Sequence record: SRR20825006_749
Reading direction: 5' to 3' (one strand)
Length of the DNA: 53,929 nt
Shown: in pieces, positions 34,602 to 43,201 of the stretch
How the letters are laid out: each line of letters starts with the position of its first letter
How positions within the stretch are numbered: the first letter of the stretch is position 1
Position numbers and translations under genes: made by a program
The notes under the pieces: generated by a model
Database searches by the model: none
Seen by the model: only the letters and a program-made list of their open reading frames with translations
What the model was told of the DNA's origin: nothing

Positions 34602-35057
34602 TTACTTGCCCAGTTTGCCTTTTATTTTATTGCATAAGGCAATCAACTGCGCGGCTTCCTCTTGTGTGAGGCCGGTAGCGCAGAGCGCTTCTTTAGCTAC
34701 CTGCTCGGCCTGCCGGGCGAACGCCTGACCTTTGGCGGTCAATGTAATCGCCATTGTACGTTCATTTCCCGGTATCCGGTTTCGTTGCAGATAACCGCGG
34801 TTTTCCAGCGTTTTCAGCATCGGTGTTAGTGTCGCTTTGCTGAGTCCGATAAGTCGACCAAGCTCAGTGACAGAAACCGCATCCTGTTGCCACAGCCCCA
34901 TCATCACCACAAATTGTGAATACGATAGCTGATGAGGTGACAATAACCGTGTATAAGCCTGGGTCACCACAGCACTGGTTGAGTACAAGGCATAACAGAC
35001 TTGTTCTGCTAATTTAGGCCCCATTGTGCCCTCATTTTTTAAAGTGGTACTTGACAT
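34602..35057 (-). CDS. MarR-family regulator, OhrR-like (alternative start at 35024)
   Basis: EQVCYALYS carries the OhrR sensing Cys; LSYSQFVVM, ATLTPMLKTLE and two C-terminal Cys residues. Confidence 0.88.
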   Translation of the reverse strand: MSSTTLKNEGTMGPKLAEQVCYALYSTSAVVTQAYTRLLSPHQLSYSQFVVMMGLWQQDAVSVTELGRLIGLSKATLTPMLKTLENRGYLQRNRIPGNERTMAITLTAKGQAFARQAEQVAKEALCATGLTQEEAAQLIALCNKIKGKLGK

Positions 35058-35499: not shown

Positions 35500-36678
35500 A
35501 TGTCAAAAAAATCACCTCATCCTGCTGTATTGGATCTGGCTTTCAGACCCTTTTTCCTGCTTGGCGCTGTTTTCAGCATTATTGCTTTAGTGTTGTGGGG
35601 CGCCAGTCTGCATGGCTGGCTCAGTCACGCTTATCATGGATATAGCCAGCTCTGGCACGGTCATGAAATGTTGTTCGGATTTGTTGCCGCCATTCTGGTG
35701 GGCTTTTTGCTCACAGCGGTGCAGAATTGGACAGGGCTGCGCTCGGCTCACGGCAACAGATTGCTACTGCTGATAATGCTGTGGCTGAGTGGGCGACTCG
35801 CCGTCTGGTTTACTGCTGAGATGCCATGGTGGCTGGTCATTGTCCTGGACAGCAGTTTTCTGCTCTACGCAGCCTGGCTGCTTGGCTCCCTGCTAATTAA
35901 AAAACAGCAGAAACGCAATTATTTTGCGGTACTGGCCATACTCCTGCTGACCGCCGACAACGTGGTGTTTCATCTTGGTGTCGCGGCCGGTCATCTGCAA
36001 ACAGCGACTTATGCCCTACATAGCGTGATATTGCTGATCACTTTGCTGATGACGGTTATTGGCGGTCGGGTAATCCCGATGTTCACCGGCAATACCACTC
36101 AGATCCCACCGCGAAAACGAATTCAATGGCTGGATAAATCCGGCTTAGCCTTATTGTGGGCCATGGTGGTTATCTTTCTTTTCCAGCTTCAGTTTTATCT
36201 GGCAGAGAGCCTTCTTGCAGTCATTTTTGTTTTTGCAGCCGTGCTTATCGCCGCGCGCTGCGCGCTTTGGCGGCCTATGTCGACTTGGCCTCACCCGCTG
36301 CTCTGGTCTTTGCACCTGAGTTACTGGTTTATCCCCCTGGGCTTATTGCTGATTGCCTGCCACTATGCCGGTATGGCGATCAGTTTGAGTACGGCCTTGC
36401 ATGCACTCACTGTTGGCGCTATGGGCGGTCTTATTCTGAGCATGATGTCCCGTGTCTCACTAGGTCATAGCGGCAGACCGATTGTGCCGGCCCCTGCTAT
36501 CAGGCTGGCGCTGGCTTTGGTGCTGCTCTCGGCATTATCCCGTGTCGGAATCATATTAATCGAACCGGCGCTCAGTATCTGGGCCCGGTGGTTGAGTATC
36601 GGACTGTGGGTTATCGCCTATGGATTATTTTTATTCCGCTATACCGGGATTCTGACTTCACCCAGAGCGGATGGTTAA
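35500..36678 (+). CDS. nnrS: NnrS heme-copper membrane protein (NO tolerance)
   Basis: AFRPFFLLG, WHGHEMLFGF, GFLLTAVQNWTG, IGGRVIPMFT, HALTVG and RVSLGHSGR. Confidence 0.95.
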   Translation: MSKKSPHPAVLDLAFRPFFLLGAVFSIIALVLWGASLHGWLSHAYHGYSQLWHGHEMLFGFVAAILVGFLLTAVQNWTGLRSAHGNRLLLLIMLWLSGRLAVWFTAEMPWWLVIVLDSSFLLYAAWLLGSLLIKKQQKRNYFAVLAILLLTADNVVFHLGVAAGHLQTATYALHSVILLITLLMTVIGGRVIPMFTGNTTQIPPRKRIQWLDKSGLALLWAMVVIFLFQLQFYLAESLLAVIFVFAAVLIAARCALWRPMSTWPHPLLWSLHLSYWFIPLGLLLIACHYAGMAISLSTALHALTVGAMGGLILSMMSRVSLGHSGRPIVPAPAIRLALALVLLSALSRVGIILIEPALSIWARWLSIGLWVIAYGLFLFRYTGILTSPRADG

Positions 36679-36723: not shown

Positions 36724-39243
36724 TCAAGGCATTTCAGCCAGGCGGCGTTGCATTTCCTCCGCGCTGGGACGTAATTGTGACAGACCTTTCCGGCTACGGC
36801 GCTGGCCCAGAAAATACAGGATAGGCGCTGCAATAAACACTGACGAACTGGTGCCAATAACAATGCCGAACAGCATCGGCAAGGCAAAACTGGCCACCGC
36901 CGAACCCCCTGCTATTCCCATCGGTAATAAAGCCAGAAAAGTGGTGACTGAGGTAAATACCGTCCGGGTCAGCGTGGATGAAATACTTTCATTCATCAGC
37001 GTCATCATCGGCTTATCCGGATTGGCTCGCAGGTTTTCCCTGATGCGATCGAACACCACCACTTTGTCATTGACCGAGTAACCAATCAAAGCCAGTAAAG
37101 CCGCAACTGCAGTCAGATTGAACTCGACGCCGGTCAAAGCAAAAAAGCCGATGGTTTTGGTCAGATCCAGGGCGATAGTTAATGTTGCTGCAATGGCAAA
37201 ATGTGATTCAAAACGGATGGCGAGATAAGCCAGCATGCCGAAGCCGGCCAGCAAAATGGCCAGAATCGTATCGTCCGCGAAGCCACTACTGACCTTGGGG
37301 CCAACCATATCCACTTTGGGAAAGGCAGCATCAGCCTGTACTGACTGGACTGCCCTCTTCAGCGCATCAACCTGGGCGGAAGTTGCTGCCGGATCCTGAT
37401 TTTCTGCCGGTAAACGTACCAGAAAATCGCCCTGCTCGGCCGATTCCTGAATCGATGCCTGTGCCATATCATGCTGTTGTAATGACGCGCGTATGTTTTC
37501 GACAGAGAGCTGACTGGCCTGGACTTCAACCAGGGTGCCGCCGGTAAAATCAACACCGTACTTCAGCCCGGGCTGAATAAACAGCACAATCGCTGCCAGT
37601 GATAACAAAGCTGAAGCCGTCAGTCCGGCAAAGCGACTGCGCAGAAAGTTGAGATTACGGCTGCTGAGCTTGTCGAGCATGGCAAAGCCATTGATCCTAA
37701 GCGGTTTCTTTTCCCGGCCTTTTATCGACCACTCCATCAACAGCCGCGTCACTGCTATCGCGGTAAACATCGAGGTCAGCAGACCAATACCGATGGTGAC
37801 GGCAAACCCTTGTACCGGACCACTCCCGAACATGAACAGCAAACTGACCGCGATGAGCGTGGTCAGGTTGGAATCAATAATCGTGGTGTAAGCTTTATCG
37901 AAGCCCTCATGCATGGCTTTCCAGGCCGATTTACCCCGTCTCGATTCTTCGCGGATACGTTCATTGATCAGAATGTTGGCATCGACCGCCATCCCCAGGG
38001 TCAGAATGATGCCGGCGATACCCGGCAAGGTCAGCGTGGCGCCGAGCAGACTCAGAATACCGAATACCAGGCCCATGTTAATGGCCAGGCCCACACAGGC
38101 AATCAGACCCCAGCGTCCATAAATTCCAATCATAAAGGCAATCACCAGCGCCGCACCGATTAAACCGGTGCTCAGGCCCATGGCAATCGCATCACTACCA
38201 AGATCGGGACCAACACTGCGTTCTTCCATCACAAGCAGCGGCACTGGCAAAGCACCGGCTCTTAGTAACAAAGCCAGTTCGGCGGCTTCTTCGGTGGTGA
38301 AACCACCGCTGATCTCCCCACTGCCACCCCCGATTTCACTACGAATCACCGGTGCGGTAATCACTTTATCATCGAGGACGATGGCGAGCGGCCTGCCGAT
38401 ATTGTCGCGGGTCATCTTACCGAATAGTTTCGCGCCTTCATTATCGAGTTTGAAAGTCACCACCGGTTCGCCACTGTCCGGGTTAAAACTGGTCTGGGCA
38501 TCACGAATATGCTGGCCCTCCATCGCCACCCGTTTTTCCAGCCTGAACTGCTGTTTACCATCCTGGCTAGGCAGGGTAATTGTGCCTTCACCACCTGTGT
38601 CAGCAGCATCCCAGTGGAAAGTCATTTTGGCGGTGGTGCCCAGTAACTGGCGAATATCACTTGGATCCGCCACGCCAGGCATCTGTACCAGTATGCCGGC
38701 ATTGCCCTGGCGGGTAATGCTGGGATCAACCAGCCCGGTCTCATCCAGACGACGGCGTACCACTTCCAGACTGCGTTCAATGGCGTCGTTCATCACCGCC
38801 TTGAACCAGCTTTCAGTGAGTCTCAATTCAAGCTGGTTGCCGATGATTTCCAGCTCCAAGCGACGACTGCCATTGTTGTTGTCACGGGCCAAAGATTCAA
38901 CGATAGCCTCTACCGGCTTAATCGAGTCGCTGTTCCTGAGTATTAATTGCAGGCTGTCAGGTTGTATTAGCGGCTGATTGTAATAAATACCGGCATCACG
39001 AAGCTGGTCGGTCAGTTCATCTGCCAGTGTCTGGTATTGTTCCTCGATAAGCGCTTTGCTATCCGCTTCCAGCAACAAATGAGAACCACCCTGTAAGTCC
39101 AGCCCAAGCGATACATTGTTTTCGCTATACCAGGCGGGTAACTTGCTGGCGATTCTGTCAGGTAAAAGATTGGGAACCGCGCTCAGTAAACCGAGCACAA
39201 TTAACAGGCCATAAACGATGGCCCGCGTAGATAATGATTTCAT
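36724..39243 (-). CDS. secDF: Fused protein translocase subunit SecDF (accessory paralogue)
   Basis: LGLDLQGG, GPDLG and GMAVDANILINERIREE (SecD); GVDFTGG, GYSVNDKVVVFDRIREN and GTSSSVFIA (SecF), all in one 839-aa chain. Confidence 0.95.
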   Translation of the reverse strand: MKSLSTRAIVYGLLIVLGLLSAVPNLLPDRIASKLPAWYSENNVSLGLDLQGGSHLLLEADSKALIEEQYQTLADELTDQLRDAGIYYNQPLIQPDSLQLILRNSDSIKPVEAIVESLARDNNNGSRRLELEIIGNQLELRLTESWFKAVMNDAIERSLEVVRRRLDETGLVDPSITRQGNAGILVQMPGVADPSDIRQLLGTTAKMTFHWDAADTGGEGTITLPSQDGKQQFRLEKRVAMEGQHIRDAQTSFNPDSGEPVVTFKLDNEGAKLFGKMTRDNIGRPLAIVLDDKVITAPVIRSEIGGGSGEISGGFTTEEAAELALLLRAGALPVPLLVMEERSVGPDLGSDAIAMGLSTGLIGAALVIAFMIGIYGRWGLIACVGLAINMGLVFGILSLLGATLTLPGIAGIILTLGMAVDANILINERIREESRRGKSAWKAMHEGFDKAYTTIIDSNLTTLIAVSLLFMFGSGPVQGFAVTIGIGLLTSMFTAIAVTRLLMEWSIKGREKKPLRINGFAMLDKLSSRNLNFLRSRFAGLTASALLSLAAIVLFIQPGLKYGVDFTGGTLVEVQASQLSVENIRASLQQHDMAQASIQESAEQGDFLVRLPAENQDPAATSAQVDALKRAVQSVQADAAFPKVDMVGPKVSSGFADDTILAILLAGFGMLAYLAIRFESHFAIAATLTIALDLTKTIGFFALTGVEFNLTAVAALLALIGYSVNDKVVVFDRIRENLRANPDKPMMTLMNESISSTLTRTVFTSVTTFLALLPMGIAGGSAVASFALPMLFGIVIGTSSSVFIAAPILYFLGQRRSRKGLSQLRPSAEEMQRRLAEMP

Positions 39244-39316
39244 GCTAATCCTCGAAAAACGATTGAATTAAAACGCCGTCAGCTTCGCTGACAACGCAAA
39301 GTTTTTTGGGATTAAC
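39244..39316 (-). promoter_or_regulatory. Predicted RNA structure sequestering the secDF ribosome-binding site
   Basis: GUUAAUCC-CA-AAAAAC (39316-39301, includes the leader UAA) pairs with GUUUUU-CGA-GGAUUAGC (39260-39244, includes the GAGGA SD). Inner 11-bp hairpin at 39297-39273. Confidence 0.75.
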
Positions 39317-39692
39317 TAAGTGGTGGTGCTCTCAGATAAGGACGTAGATAGGCACAGTCGTCGAGCTGAGCAGAGAAAATCTCAGTGACTGATGAAACCG
39401 TATTCCGGCCTTTAACAGGGGCATGCCCGGCTGGATTAATGGCCTGATCGTCGGCTGAGTCGGAATCCGCTGAAGTCTGCCCTGATTGTTCAGACTTCAG
39501 GCTCAGCCTCAGTGAATTATCATGCAGCGCTGTCCGGGCATCCAGTCGTTTAACCAGACCCGTGCTGCTTTCCGTGTTGCCGGATTGAGCGTAGGAAATA
39601 ACCGGCAGCGATGCCAGTAACAAGGCAAAACACAAGACCCACAGCCGGGCGGCTATGTGACTGGTTGATGTGTCTTGTTGTTGGGGCGACAT
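39312..39692 (-). CDS. Secretion-monitoring arrest peptide candidate (signal peptide plus C-terminal RAPP)
   Basis: Hydrophobic signal ending in SYA, polar linker, C-terminus YLRPYLRAPPLS; ends 68 nt upstream of secDF. Confidence 0.8.
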   Translation of the reverse strand: MSPQQQDTSTSHIAARLWVLCFALLLASLPVISYAQSGNTESSTGLVKRLDARTALHDNSLRLSLKSEQSGQTSADSDSADDQAINPAGHAPVKGRNTVSSVTEIFSAQLDDCAYLRPYLRAPPLS

Positions 39693-39809: not shown

Positions 39810-40583
39810 TCAGAACCAGACTCTCACTCCGGCAACAAAGGTTGCTGTACTGTCCTCATCCCCTTCGCTTTCTGCCAGATCTTTTGTATCACCCAGTAAC
39901 CGGGTGGCTGACACACCGATATAGGGCGCAAATTCCCGACTCAGGTGATAGCGCAGGCGTATACCGGTGGTGATGCCATTGAGACCCTGTCCCTGTTCGA
40001 AGTCTTCAACTTCAGAAAAGGCATAACTGGTTTCTGCCCGTGCCTGCAAAATCAGCTTTTGTGTCAGACGCCAGTCATACTCGGCTTCCAGATCCAACCA
40101 GGTATCACCGTCGTCACTGATACGGAGATTGCTATCGATTTCAAACCAGTACGGTGCCAGGCCCTGAAAACCAATAATGCCGTAATAACGCTCCTGCCTG
40201 GCACCGGCGCCGAAGCTGGTCTGGGTGCCAATACCGGTTTGCAGGTCCCAGAATGGACTGATACGGCGGCTGTACTGTAAATCCAGATTTTCTATTTCAC
40301 CGCTATGCTCATCGTTGTAACTGCCTTCGGTTTCCAGCCAGAATCGATTCAAATCCTTGCCATACCAGGCCTGTGCATCCCACAGCAGTTGCTCACTGCC
40401 TTCGATGCTTTGCATCTCCAGTCGATCAAACATCAACTGACCATAAGCCATATCATCATGAATCGGTTTGGGCCAGCTGGGATCTGCCTGCAAACCGGTA
40501 CCGTCAGCAAGGCTCTGTGCCGAGCCAATGATGAGTGATGTTGCCAGAGAAAAAGCTGTTATTGTCCTGATTAATCTCATCAT
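39810..40583 (-). CDS. copB: Copper resistance outer-membrane protein B (start may be 40580)
   Basis: FDRLE, WDAQAWYG, GLAPYWFE, REFAPYIGV and terminal VRVWF. Confidence 0.92.
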   Translation of the reverse strand: MMRLIRTITAFSLATSLIIGSAQSLADGTGLQADPSWPKPIHDDMAYGQLMFDRLEMQSIEGSEQLLWDAQAWYGKDLNRFWLETEGSYNDEHSGEIENLDLQYSRRISPFWDLQTGIGTQTSFGAGARQERYYGIIGFQGLAPYWFEIDSNLRISDDGDTWLDLEAEYDWRLTQKLILQARAETSYAFSEVEDFEQGQGLNGITTGIRLRYHLSREFAPYIGVSATRLLGDTKDLAESEGDEDSTATFVAGVRVWF

Positions 40584-40589
40584 TAACTC

Positions 40590-42347
40590 CTAGGCAACCG
40601 AAACAACACGGAACATGCCCGCTTTCATGTGGTACATCAGGTGACAGTGAAATGCCCAGTCGCCAAAGGCATCGGCGGTAATCAACGCTGATACCCGTTC
40701 CCCCGGTTTAACAATAATGGTGTGCTTTCTGGGCCTTAAATCACCGTGGCCGTTTTCCAGTTCCATCCACATGCCGTGCAAATGAATCGGGTGATCCATC
40801 ATCGTGTCATTCACCAGCGTCAGTCTGAGACGTTCGTCTTGGTAGAAACGTATCGGGCCGTCCACTTCCGAGAATTTCTTACCATCGAAGGACCACATAT
40901 AGCGTTCCATACTGCCGGTCAGATGCAGTTCAATCTCCCGGGCCGGTTCTCTTTTGTCCGGCCAGCCGTCGTGACTTTTCAGTTGTGAGTAGGTCAGCAC
41001 CCGGTGATCAACATGCTCGAAACCGACACCGGGATCATCAAGCCTGGATACCGGCTTGTCCACGACCATGGCGGCGCCGGGCCCGTGATTATCAGGCCCG
41101 TGAGAAACGCTGTCGACCGACTCTGTCTGGCTCATCTGATGACCATCATGTTTACCATGATCCATGGCCATGTTCTGATCCCTGTTCATCGCGTTATCGC
41201 CGTGCATGGCATGACCTGCGCCCATGGCTTCCATCCCCCGCTCCACACGCGGGTAGAGATCTGGAATGGGCGCGGTCAGCCCCGGTGCAGATGACAGTGT
41301 GGCACTGACAAAACCGCTCCTGTCCTGCGACTGGGCAAAGATGGTATAGGCGTCGGCGGTGGGTTCGACAATTACATCATAGGTCTCTGCCACACCAATT
41401 CGGAATTCGTCAGTCTTAACCGCTTGCACCGGCTGACCATCAGCGGCGATAACCGTCATTTCCAGACCGGGAATTTTAAGATCAAAAAATGTCATCGCCG
41501 AGGCATTAATCACCCGCAGGCGGACTTTTTCTCCCGGTTTAAACAGACCGGTCCAGTTGCCGACGCTGGCTTTACCATTGATCAGATAGGTGTATTCACT
41601 GCCGGTGACATCCAGGATATCTCGCGGGCTCATGCGCATCTGGCCCCACATTGCGGATTTCTGCCAGGCAGATTGCCAGCCCATCTTTTCTACATCTTCA
41701 AAAAAGTCGGCCACGGTGCGTTGATTGTAGTTGTAGTAACCTTCGGCCACTTTCAGGTTACGCATCACTTCCGCCGGACTGTCAAAAGTCCAGTCAGACA
41801 GCAAAATGACATAGTCACGATCAACGTCAATATCTTCGCCCGCTTCAGGCTCAATGACCAAGGGGCCATAATGACCCAACTGCTCCTGCATGCCCGAGTG
41901 ACTGTGATACCAGTAGGTGCCGTTTTGCACCACTGGGAAACGATATTCAAAGGTTTCGCCGGGCTTGATGCCGGCAAAGGAAATGCCGGGCACACCATCC
42001 ATCTGATAAGGCAGCAAAATACCATGCCAGTGAATCGAGGTATCGACATCCAGTGCGTTTTTAACCCGTAAAACCGCTTCCCTTCCCTCCTTGAGTTTAA
42101 GCAGTGGGGCCGGGATGGTGCCGTTGATGGTGATGGCTTGTGAGGTTAACTGCCGATCAATTTCCAGCGTGGTTCTGGCAATATTGAAGTCAAAGATATC
42201 GGCATTACCCGCTGTTTTTTTGGGGACCAGCGACATCGACTGTTGTTTGGCCAGTGCCGGCATCAATGGGTAAATGCTACTGAGCAGACCTGCTGAAGCC
42301 AAAGCCTGTAATATTTGCCGTCGTTGCTTGTTATGATGCTGTGTCAT
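40590..42347 (-). CDS. copA: CopA/PcoA multicopper oxidase, Tat-exported
   Basis: RRQIL Tat-like motif, IHWHG, WYHSH, HPIHLHG and HCHLMYHM; Met/His-rich insert. Confidence 0.95.
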   Translation of the reverse strand: MTQHHNKQRRQILQALASAGLLSSIYPLMPALAKQQSMSLVPKKTAGNADIFDFNIARTTLEIDRQLTSQAITINGTIPAPLLKLKEGREAVLRVKNALDVDTSIHWHGILLPYQMDGVPGISFAGIKPGETFEYRFPVVQNGTYWYHSHSGMQEQLGHYGPLVIEPEAGEDIDVDRDYVILLSDWTFDSPAEVMRNLKVAEGYYNYNQRTVADFFEDVEKMGWQSAWQKSAMWGQMRMSPRDILDVTGSEYTYLINGKASVGNWTGLFKPGEKVRLRVINASAMTFFDLKIPGLEMTVIAADGQPVQAVKTDEFRIGVAETYDVIVEPTADAYTIFAQSQDRSGFVSATLSSAPGLTAPIPDLYPRVERGMEAMGAGHAMHGDNAMNRDQNMAMDHGKHDGHQMSQTESVDSVSHGPDNHGPGAAMVVDKPVSRLDDPGVGFEHVDHRVLTYSQLKSHDGWPDKREPAREIELHLTGSMERYMWSFDGKKFSEVDGPIRFYQDERLRLTLVNDTMMDHPIHLHGMWMELENGHGDLRPRKHTIIVKPGERVSALITADAFGDWAFHCHLMYHMKAGMFRVVSVA

Positions 42348-42423: not shown

Positions 42424-42459
42424 GTCACCAAGGTGACGCCAAGATGACAAAAATGTCAT
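42424..42459. promoter_or_regulatory. CusR/CopR box between the divergent copAB and cusRS genes
   Basis: ATGACA-AAAA-TGTCAT (42444-42459) matches the CusR box; second palindrome GTCACC-AA-GGTGAC (42424-42437). Confidence 0.75.
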
Positions 42460-42517
42460 GTTGCCTTCATATCACTGTCAGCTTCTTGCTGTCAGGCTGA
42501 CTGTATTTGGAATCAAA

Positions 42518-43201
42518 ATGCGCCTGTTAATCATTGAAGATGACGAGAAAACCGGAAAATACCTGACGCAGGGCTTAACTGAGGCCTCTTTTGTAGTCAG
42601 CTGGGTCCGTCATGGCGTTGATGGTTTGCATGAGCAGGCTAATACGCCATTTGATCTGATTATTCTGGATCGGATGCTGCCGGATATGGATGGTCTGCAG
42701 GTTTTGAAACAGTTACAAGGCCGCGGCACCTTACCACCTGTGTTGTTACTGACTGCCAAAGACAGCATTGAAGATCGTGTTACAGGGCTGGAAGCCGGCG
42801 CCGATGATTATCTGGTTAAACCTTTTGCTTTTGCTGAACTGCTGGCGCGCATCAGAACGCTGTTGAGGCGTGGTCAACAGCCGGTTGCCGATACGCGTCT
42901 GACCTTGGCTGATCTGGAAATAGATTTGGTCGGGCGGCGCGTTTACCGCAACGGCAGACAAATCAGACTGACCGCCAAGGAATTTGCATTGCTCGAATTA
43001 TTGCTCAGACATCAGGGTCAGGTTTTACCCCGTTCCATGATTGCTTCCATGGTTTGGGATATTAATTTCGACAGCGATACCAATGTCATTGATGTCGCGA
43101 TTCGTCGTTTACGATCCAAGATTGATGATGAGTTTGAGCAGAAACTGATTCATACCGTTCGTGGTATGGGATATGTGTGTGATGCCACAGCCCGGGACTA
43201 A
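42518..43201 (+). CDS. cusR: Heavy-metal response regulator (CusR/CopR)
   Basis: [21 protein letters not shown] and [21 protein letters not shown]. Confidence 0.93.

Follow-up and report, generated by a model that had tools for sequence, protein, structure and literature searches.

Leader peptides with RAPP-like arrest motifs were surveyed by Fujiwara et al. (2024; PMC10987492), who screened more than 30,000 GTDB genomes and defined the RQH family. According to the main text of that study, the family comprises 19 groups named by bacterial order, eight of them upstream of secA and eleven upstream of secDF. One of the latter, uDF_RQH_Enterobacterales from Alteromonas naphthalenivorans, stalls ribosomes (fAP > 0.9) and induces a secDF2'-lacZ fusion 5.6-fold via a stem-loop that partly masks the Shine-Dalgarno (SD) sequence; mutations that break this stem bypass the need for arrest (PMC10987492). 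Both RAPP and RGPP are reported to cause robust arrest in varied N-terminal contexts (PMC12992588), and toeprints show that RAPP-like peptides stall with the third residue of the motif at the P-site (PMC10987492). A comparable locus lies on the minus strand of SRR20825006_749, a stretch of 53,929 nucleotides (here the window) from a marine bacterium that we call Methylophaga-type. There, a 126-residue open reading frame (ORF) precedes a gene for a fused SecDF, secDF2, and its product is quite probably a Sec-exported, RAPP-type monitoring substrate that controls translation of secDF2. This reading is partly supported, by comparison rather than by experiment. The leader and its target gene comprise the following features:

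39312..39692, minus strand: leader ORF, a candidate Sec-monitoring arrest peptide (ORF list; Methylophaga homologues).
39588..39692, minus strand: signal-peptide-like N-terminus, codons 1-35, with R16, a hydrophobic core from about L17 to I32, and S-Y-A followed by Q36 (hydrophobicity scan; cleavage site placed by eye).
39321..39341, minus strand: conserved arrest core P-Y-L-R-A-P-P, codons 118-124 (P118, L120 and R121-P124 invariant in 10 of 10 sequences).
39321..39332, minus strand: RAPP, with the predicted P-site codon at 39324-39326 and A-site codon at 39321-39323 (register taken from toeprints of related peptides).
36724..39243, minus strand: secDF2, encoding a fused SecDF of 839 amino acids (Pfam and NCBIfam).

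The leader begins with ATG and ends in ...AYLRPYLRAPPLS-stop (LRPYLRAPPLS), with RAPP encoded by AGA GCA CCA CCA at 39332-39321 and the UAA stop at 39314-39312. An earlier note on this DNA had described the same 126-residue ORF with its signal or transmembrane segment, terminal motif and RAPP codon positions, all of which the ORF list, a hydrophobicity scan and a reading of the coordinates bear out. The most hydrophobic 15-residue segment spans residues 19-33 (mean Kyte-Doolittle value 2.51), and the next best beyond the first 45 residues reaches 0.56. Judged by eye, S-Y-A/Q agrees with the -3/-1 rule, and the N-terminus resembles a Sec signal peptide that may serve as a cleaved signal or as an anchor.

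This architecture is close to that of the Alteromonas leader, which is compared here by its published description rather than by sequence. Both are gammaproteobacterial and consist of a small ORF with an N-terminal localization signal (construct residues 43-131 in Alteromonas, 126 amino acids in the window), both carry an R-x-P-P core a few residues before the stop codon, and both lie upstream of a second secDF. In each case the intergenic RNA has two stem-loops (predicted in the window), and the SD is masked by one of them. They differ in the core itself, which is RAPP in the window and RGPP in Alteromonas (R125GPP, last residue 131), and in the number of residues that follow it, two as opposed to three. 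In addition, the SD helix of the window is long-range and encloses the other hairpin. The properties by which PMC10987492 delimits the uDF_RQH leaders are all found here: (i) the ORF is shorter than 300 amino acids, lies on the same strand directly upstream of secDF and has no annotated function, (ii) it has an N-terminal secretion signal or transmembrane segment, judged by eye from hydrophobicity, (iii) its C-terminal RAPP-like motif is conserved among homologues, and (iv) the spacer from residue 35 to Pro123 measures 88 residues, the published minimum being more than 30.

ApdP from Sinorhizobium medicae is likewise secreted, carries a C-terminal RAPP and is encoded upstream of a fused secDF (PMC10951233); its stall leaves the third residue of the motif at the P-site (PMC12992588), as predicted for the window. 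ApdP was defined for Alphaproteobacteria (PMC10987492). In its S. meliloti homologue, a protein of 140 amino acids, RAPP occupies residues 131-134 and the ORF lies 93 nucleotides before secD; six residues follow RAPP in ApdP, compared with two in the window leader. The window leader falls outside the ApdP homology group, with hosts in the gammaproteobacterial genus Methylophaga and no homology detected by hhalign, which aligned the ten-sequence window family to the S. meliloti homologue with a probability of 18.7% over 26 signal-peptide residues only. The ApdP-associated SecDF is 44.7% identical to that of the window. The arrest sequence of VemP, the monitor found in Vibrio, is not known to be RAPP-like. 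VemP otherwise resembles the system proposed here, in that it is a secreted monitor and that, under poor export, its arrest switches on a second set of SecDF (PMC11470409), but the Vibrio genes are split into secD2 and secF2, and the best Vibrio matches to the window SecDF in a plasmid collection are 35.6-36.8% identical. SecM from Escherichia coli shares the logic of a secreted leader with a C-terminal arrest motif, an SD-masking stem and release by translocation (PMC10987492). Its target, however, is secA rather than secDF, its RAGP core is accompanied by a long upstream arrest sequence, and a profile search of 1.84 billion representative proteins revealed no similarity between SecM and the window family.

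The earlier note had raised the possibility of an uncharacterized gammaproteobacterial family, and this holds only in part. The peptide has no family match in Pfam or NCBIfam, and no Methylophaga arrest leader is named in the main texts on translation arrest that were searched; on the other hand, a secDF leader of this kind has been published and tested in Alteromonas (PMC10987492). Methylophaga, Nitrosococcales and Thiotrichales do not occur in the main text of that study, whose supplements may well already catalogue the Methylophaga leaders, and its main text leaves six of the eleven secDF groups unnamed.

Homologues of the leader are few. A word-based search found five relatives among 23 candidates, and the profile search yielded seven leader proteins at E <= 0.001. 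All named clusters, and the named homologue sources in general, are Methylophaga species (Gammaproteobacteria; Thiotrichales in the NCBI taxonomy, Nitrosococcales in GTDB), where the protein is labelled 'hypothetical protein'; WP_007145053.1 and WP_266235428.1 are examples. In an alignment of ten sequences with 27-73% identity to the window peptide, L25, P30, L46, R62, D76, P118, L120, R121, A122, P123 and P124 are invariant, A23, L26, L29, V31 and Y34 are nearly so, and the middle of the protein is poorly conserved. Exactly two residues separate RAPP from the stop codon in all ten.

A full-length fused SecDF with 61-92% identity is encoded in 21 of 81 genomes that are relatives of one Methylophaga genome; a SecDF fragment at a contig end in genome G034, which lacks upstream DNA, is not included in this count. 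In every one of the 21 loci, a same-strand ORF of 126-133 amino acids lies directly upstream, ends 29-69 nucleotides before secDF2, and combines a hydrophobic N-terminal segment with an R-A-x-P core located two to five residues before the stop. This core is RAPP in 15 leaders and RAAP in six, and the C-termini fall into four groups:

Group A (window type): ...LRAPPL followed by S, R or A; 6 loci.
Group B: ...PEPRAAPQA; 6 loci.
Group C: ...L P L/R N/T RAPP plus two to three residues; 7 loci.
Group D: ...AIPRAPPIR; 2 loci.

The profile built from the window family recovered six of these 21 leaders (a weak match in G022, with E = 0.006 and four internal stops, was discarded), and when the four groups were compared profile against profile, no homology was convincing, the best probability being 25.8%. 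Because the profiles miss most leaders while SecDF2 remains at least 61% identical, the peptides appear to have drifted so far apart that the signal and the core alone are still recognizable. Common descent of the groups is suggested solely by their position before orthologous secDF2 genes. Across loci, RAPP is encoded by different synonymous codons (AGA GCA CCA CCA; AGA GCG CCA CCT; CGA GCC CCA CCA; CGC GCA CCG CCC), which argues that selection acts on the peptide. A class-wide sample of 400 genomes contained fused matches in at least three genomes, all already present among the relatives; this figure is a lower bound, as two candidates were scored per genome.

The start codon of secDF2 (AUG at 39243-39241) follows the leader stop after 68 nucleotides, and its SD, GAGGA, is at 39253-39249. 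The RNA between the two genes is predicted to fold into the following elements:

39301..39316, minus strand: 5' arm (GUUAAUCCC.AAAAAC), which takes in the final two bases of codon Ser126, the stop codon UAA and the UCCC anti-SD (minimum free energy, centroid and homologue consensus folds).
39244..39260, minus strand: 3' arm (GUUUUU.C.G.A.GGAUUAGC), which contains the secDF2 SD GAGGA at 39249-39253 and extends to the base before the AUG (fold).
39273..39297, minus strand: inner 11-bp hairpin enclosed by the long-range helix and followed in the window by the terminator-like UUUUAAUU (fold; terminator scan).

A segment of 104 nucleotides (39229-39332), from the Arg codon to 12 nucleotides past the AUG, was folded and compared with 200 dinucleotide shuffles. 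Its minimum free energy (MFE) structure, identical to the centroid, has -27.8 kcal/mol (z = -4.29), and none of the 200 shuffles folds as well; for a 121-nucleotide version z is -2.86, with one of 200 shuffles as good. In the MFE structure, 39316-39308 and 39306-39301 pair with 39260-39255, 39253 and 39251-39244. The arm GUUAAUCC.C.AAAAAC is thus joined to GUUUUU.C.G.GGAUUAGC, burying GAGGA and all bases up to the AUG, and this fold upholds the two-arm, SD-hiding stem that the earlier note had drawn from the last leader codon and UAA. Opening positions -14 to +3 around the AUG is calculated to cost 11.2 kcal/mol; when the upstream part is shuffled, 5 of 200 versions reach this cost. The same SD-sequestering helix forms in four distinct window-type leaders each folded alone and is kept in the consensus fold of homologues. 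A DNA contig from an estuary metagenome differs from the window at 12 of 1251 positions, none of them in the helix, and the single difference within the leader (39345) reads as synonymous.

The stronger RNA evidence comes from recurrence of the predicted fold across groups rather than from covariation within the window-type subgroup. The 22 loci folded span the four peptide groups, between which the intergenic regions show no relation in either sequence or length, yet in all 22 the MFE structure pairs the secDF2 ribosome-binding site (RBS, -14 to +3) with a segment whose first base is at +2 to +12, counted from the P-site codon as predicted. For groups B and D, and for the branch of group A formed by loci L028 and L029, the anti-SD (CCUC, AUCC or CCUCUAGC) is at +2 to +11, inside any ribosome footprint. 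For nine representative loci, pairing of +1 to +13 was forbidden and the upstream segment was dinucleotide-shuffled. Covering these positions reduces the modelled RBS opening energy by 2.9-7.7 kcal/mol, matched by 0-6 of 200 shuffles; in the window this relief amounts to 3.9 kcal/mol, which 2 of 200 shuffles attain. Seven of the nine loci also stand out in their total opening cost (1-10 of 200 shuffles). The earlier note had staked its reading, among other things, on the conservation of RAPP and of the stem in orthologous loci, and on both counts the reading survives, as RAPP is invariant in the ten aligned leaders, a RAPP or RAAP leader precedes secDF2 in 21 of 21 loci, and all 22 folded loci sequester the SD with RNA adjacent to the stall site despite differing sequences. 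The covariation that it had also proposed to examine says little within the window-type subgroup.

L028 and L029 encode a leader ending in ...YPPLRAPPLA-stop, followed by an intergenic region of 65 nucleotides. Here the anti-SD CCUCUAGC coincides with the second Pro, the Leu and the Ala codons (+3 to +11), and the modelled opening cost falls from 12.2-13.6 to 4.6 kcal/mol, which would make a cleaner switch than that of the window.

What is observed are the sequence features, their conservation and the predicted folds; by analogy with the published systems, these suggest how stalling, its release by export and the induction of secDF2 may come about. In the free mRNA, the long-range helix, whose 5' arm starts in the last leader codon, would lock the secDF2 SD together with everything from there to the AUG. 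During translation of the leader, a ribosome would stall once Pro123 (first CCA) occupies the P-site and Pro124 the A-site, while the signal peptide, about 90 residues upstream, is exposed. If the Sec machinery promptly engages the signal peptide and pulls on it, the stall would be released, termination would follow two codons on, the helix would re-form and secDF2 expression would stay low. The window leader has the prerequisites for such a release, a signal-peptide-like N-terminus and a long spacer. When export is slow, the ribosome would remain parked, the first 2-5 base pairs of the helix would be unwound, the opening energy of the RBS would drop, and a 30S subunit could start on secDF2.

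The footprint of a stalled ribosome reaches about +13 to +15. Relative to the P-site codon, the 5' arm of the window extends from +11 to +26 and its anti-SD UCCC from +16 to +19; with a footprint ending there, the ribosome would cover 2-5 of the 15 paired bases of the arm and leave the anti-SD uncovered. The claim of the earlier note that a stalled ribosome would cover the 5' arm and turn on secDF is therefore retained for the lowered opening cost in the model, and has to be narrowed as to how much of the arm is covered.

Several observations weigh against the proposed arrest switch. Modelled relief in the window is partial, from 11.2 to 7.3 kcal/mol with 13 nucleotides covered or 5.7 with 15, the anti-SD UCCC lies outside the +13 to +15 footprint, and an alternative pairing of the SD appears when 15-17 nucleotides are covered. 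In the close homologue L024, which is the same locus as L001, there is no relief at a cover of 13 (8.6 to 8.7) and little at 15 (7.2), and the relief is also small in L032 (8.5, 7.3 and 6.8 kcal/mol). The total opening cost is not unusual in L030 (52 of 200 shuffles) and L043 (20 of 200). In the window-type subgroup (six distinct sequences), the share of paired cells is 94.2%, but among the 15 outer-helix pairs 10 never vary and only one changes on both sides, so that covariation says little there. Contigs of 151-160 nucleotides from two RNA libraries (39099-39249, 39277-39427 and 39437-39596, depth 2-5.5) cover fragments of the locus only; they could be DNA carry-over and are not counted as evidence of expression or co-transcription. 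Finally, a ribosome that terminates at UAA, with Ser126 in the P-site and the stop codon in the A-site, would span the entire 5' arm (+11 to +26), which one stalled at RAPP does not.

This last point favors plain translational coupling, in which each ribosome ending at UAA melts the helix, secDF2 translation follows leader translation, and slowing at RAPP is incidental. Since the terminating ribosome covers the 5' arm, some translation of secDF2 could indeed arise by coupling without arrest. Such expression would match findings in Alteromonas, where the non-arresting mutant P127A is more active than an early stop codon, an effect that the authors credit to translating ribosomes (PMC10987492). 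As the whole explanation, coupling is nevertheless unlikely. It leaves unexplained the invariance of PxLRAPP, a motif reported to be strongly avoided in proteomes (PMC12992588), the recurrence of RAPP in 15 of 21 otherwise unrelated leaders, and the conserved signal peptide. Moreover, arrest accounts for most of the 5.6-fold induction in Alteromonas (PMC10987492).

A second alternative, transcription attenuation, seems very improbable. In this model, the hairpin at 39273-39297 and the following UUUUAAUU form an intrinsic terminator, and translation of or stalling in the leader sets read-through into secDF2. The terminator scan does call the hairpin terminator-like (11 pairs, six of them G-C, with the tail TTTAATTCAA), and a G+C hairpin followed by U-rich sequence is also present in L028 and L029. 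The U-run, however, is replaced by TTCTGATTC in L004, whose peptide is 100% identical, it is missing after the hairpin in L003 and L002, and such hairpins are different or absent in groups B, C and D. Single terminator-like sites are weak evidence in any case, because the region contains eight of them and shuffled sequences 3.9 +/- 2.2. One RNA-library contig spans 39277-39427 but proves nothing about termination.

An RNA-only switch, such as a thermometer or a salt-sensitive SD hairpin acting independently of the peptide, with the ORF as an ordinary small secreted protein, is hardly credible: SD-sequestering helices can work as thermometers and the Rfam scan of the leader RNA has as its best match the ToxT thermometer, but at 22.8 bits (E = 0.42), where the gathering score is 81, this match, like the others in the scan, is at chance level, the anti-SD is always placed at the last codons or stop of the leader beside RAPP or RAAP (22 of 22 loci), which a thermometer does not need, and the poorly conserved middle of the peptide suits a spacer rather than a folded protein.

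The target of the proposed arrest switch is a complete fused SecDF. Its Pfam domains comprise SecD_1st, the P1 head, two Sec_GG and two SecD_SecF_C domains, and it matches the NCBIfam SecDF subfamily NF009583 with 882 bits (cut-off 721). Besides the fused gene, three of three related genomes encode a separate canonical secD and secF pair on another contig. These paralogue counts, taken from the three related genomes and not from the window's own, suggest that the fused secDF would be a second copy in this lineage, as expected of a back-up translocon factor. Its identities to SecDF of Marinobacter (71-75%), Idiomarina and Pseudidiomarina (70-71%) and Alteromonas pelagimontana (67%) place the window protein in a marine gammaproteobacterial clade of fused SecDFs that includes Alteromonas. 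Matches in the plasmid collection are all below 60%, with 44-51% for alphaproteobacterial fused SecDFs and 34-37% for matches from Vibrio and Pseudoalteromonas.

The window SecDF is closer to that of Marinobacter (71-75%) than to those of L030-L044 in the sample of Methylophaga relatives (61-64%). There are hints of more than one secDF2 lineage, or of a leader-secDF2 module that was transferred among marine gammaproteobacteria.

Upstream of the leader on the same strand, at 39810-42347, are copB (PF05275) and a copA-like multicopper oxidase gene, beyond which an OmpR-type response regulator is divergently encoded (42458-43201, plus strand). The upstream neighbours are copA and copB in the window and in L001, and genes for an MFS transporter and an HPP-domain protein in L003. 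Because these neighbours differ between loci, the leader and secDF2 form a conserved unit, and the copper genes, present in L001 and absent from L003, are neighbours rather than part of the switch. An NnrS-family gene is convergent to secDF2 (35500-36678, plus strand), and NnrS also adjoins secDF2 in L024 and L026. Beyond it lies a 151-amino acid ORF (34602-35057, minus strand), which we take by eye to be MarR-like.

The RAAP leaders precede secDF2 in L030, L032, L033, L034 and L042 (...YFLPEPRAAPQA-stop) and in L037 (...PEPRAAPQANFA-stop), with the stop codon 29-44 nucleotides before the gene. These six of the 21 loci keep the predicted helix, with the anti-SD CCUC at +2 to +10 from the presumed stall codon. 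Alanine at the third motif position abolished arrest in each published test, in ApcA, ApdA and ApdP (PMC12992588) as well as in the Alteromonas leader as P127A (PMC10987492); the query motifs published in PMC10987492 do not include RAAP. A RAAP leader that stalls, should it exist, would thus represent a new natural arrest core. It is possible, if doubtful, that the secDF2 leaders of the Methylophaga family are a fast-evolving set that descends from a single ancestral monitor and in which not even the arrest core has stayed the same. On the same tentative view, the window variant may be a graded switch rather than an on/off one, because its anti-SD lies at the edge of the footprint.

The window locus looks like a further case of a secretion-sensing switch already demonstrated in a related bacterium, and introduces no new principle. 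If confirmed, it would add a Methylophaga-type lineage (NCBI order Thiotrichales) to those that use RAPP-type secretion monitors, and would reveal a leader-secDF2 module that is kept in every sampled fused-secDF2 locus while the peptide, the position of the anti-SD and even the arrest core drift. In the annotation of the window, the 'hypothetical protein' would then become a regulatory leader and the fused SecDF a stress-inducible second copy. The family as a whole would provide a natural series from which to learn what is indispensable in an arrest peptide and in its RNA switch, and what distance between the anti-SD and the stalled ribosome is tolerated.

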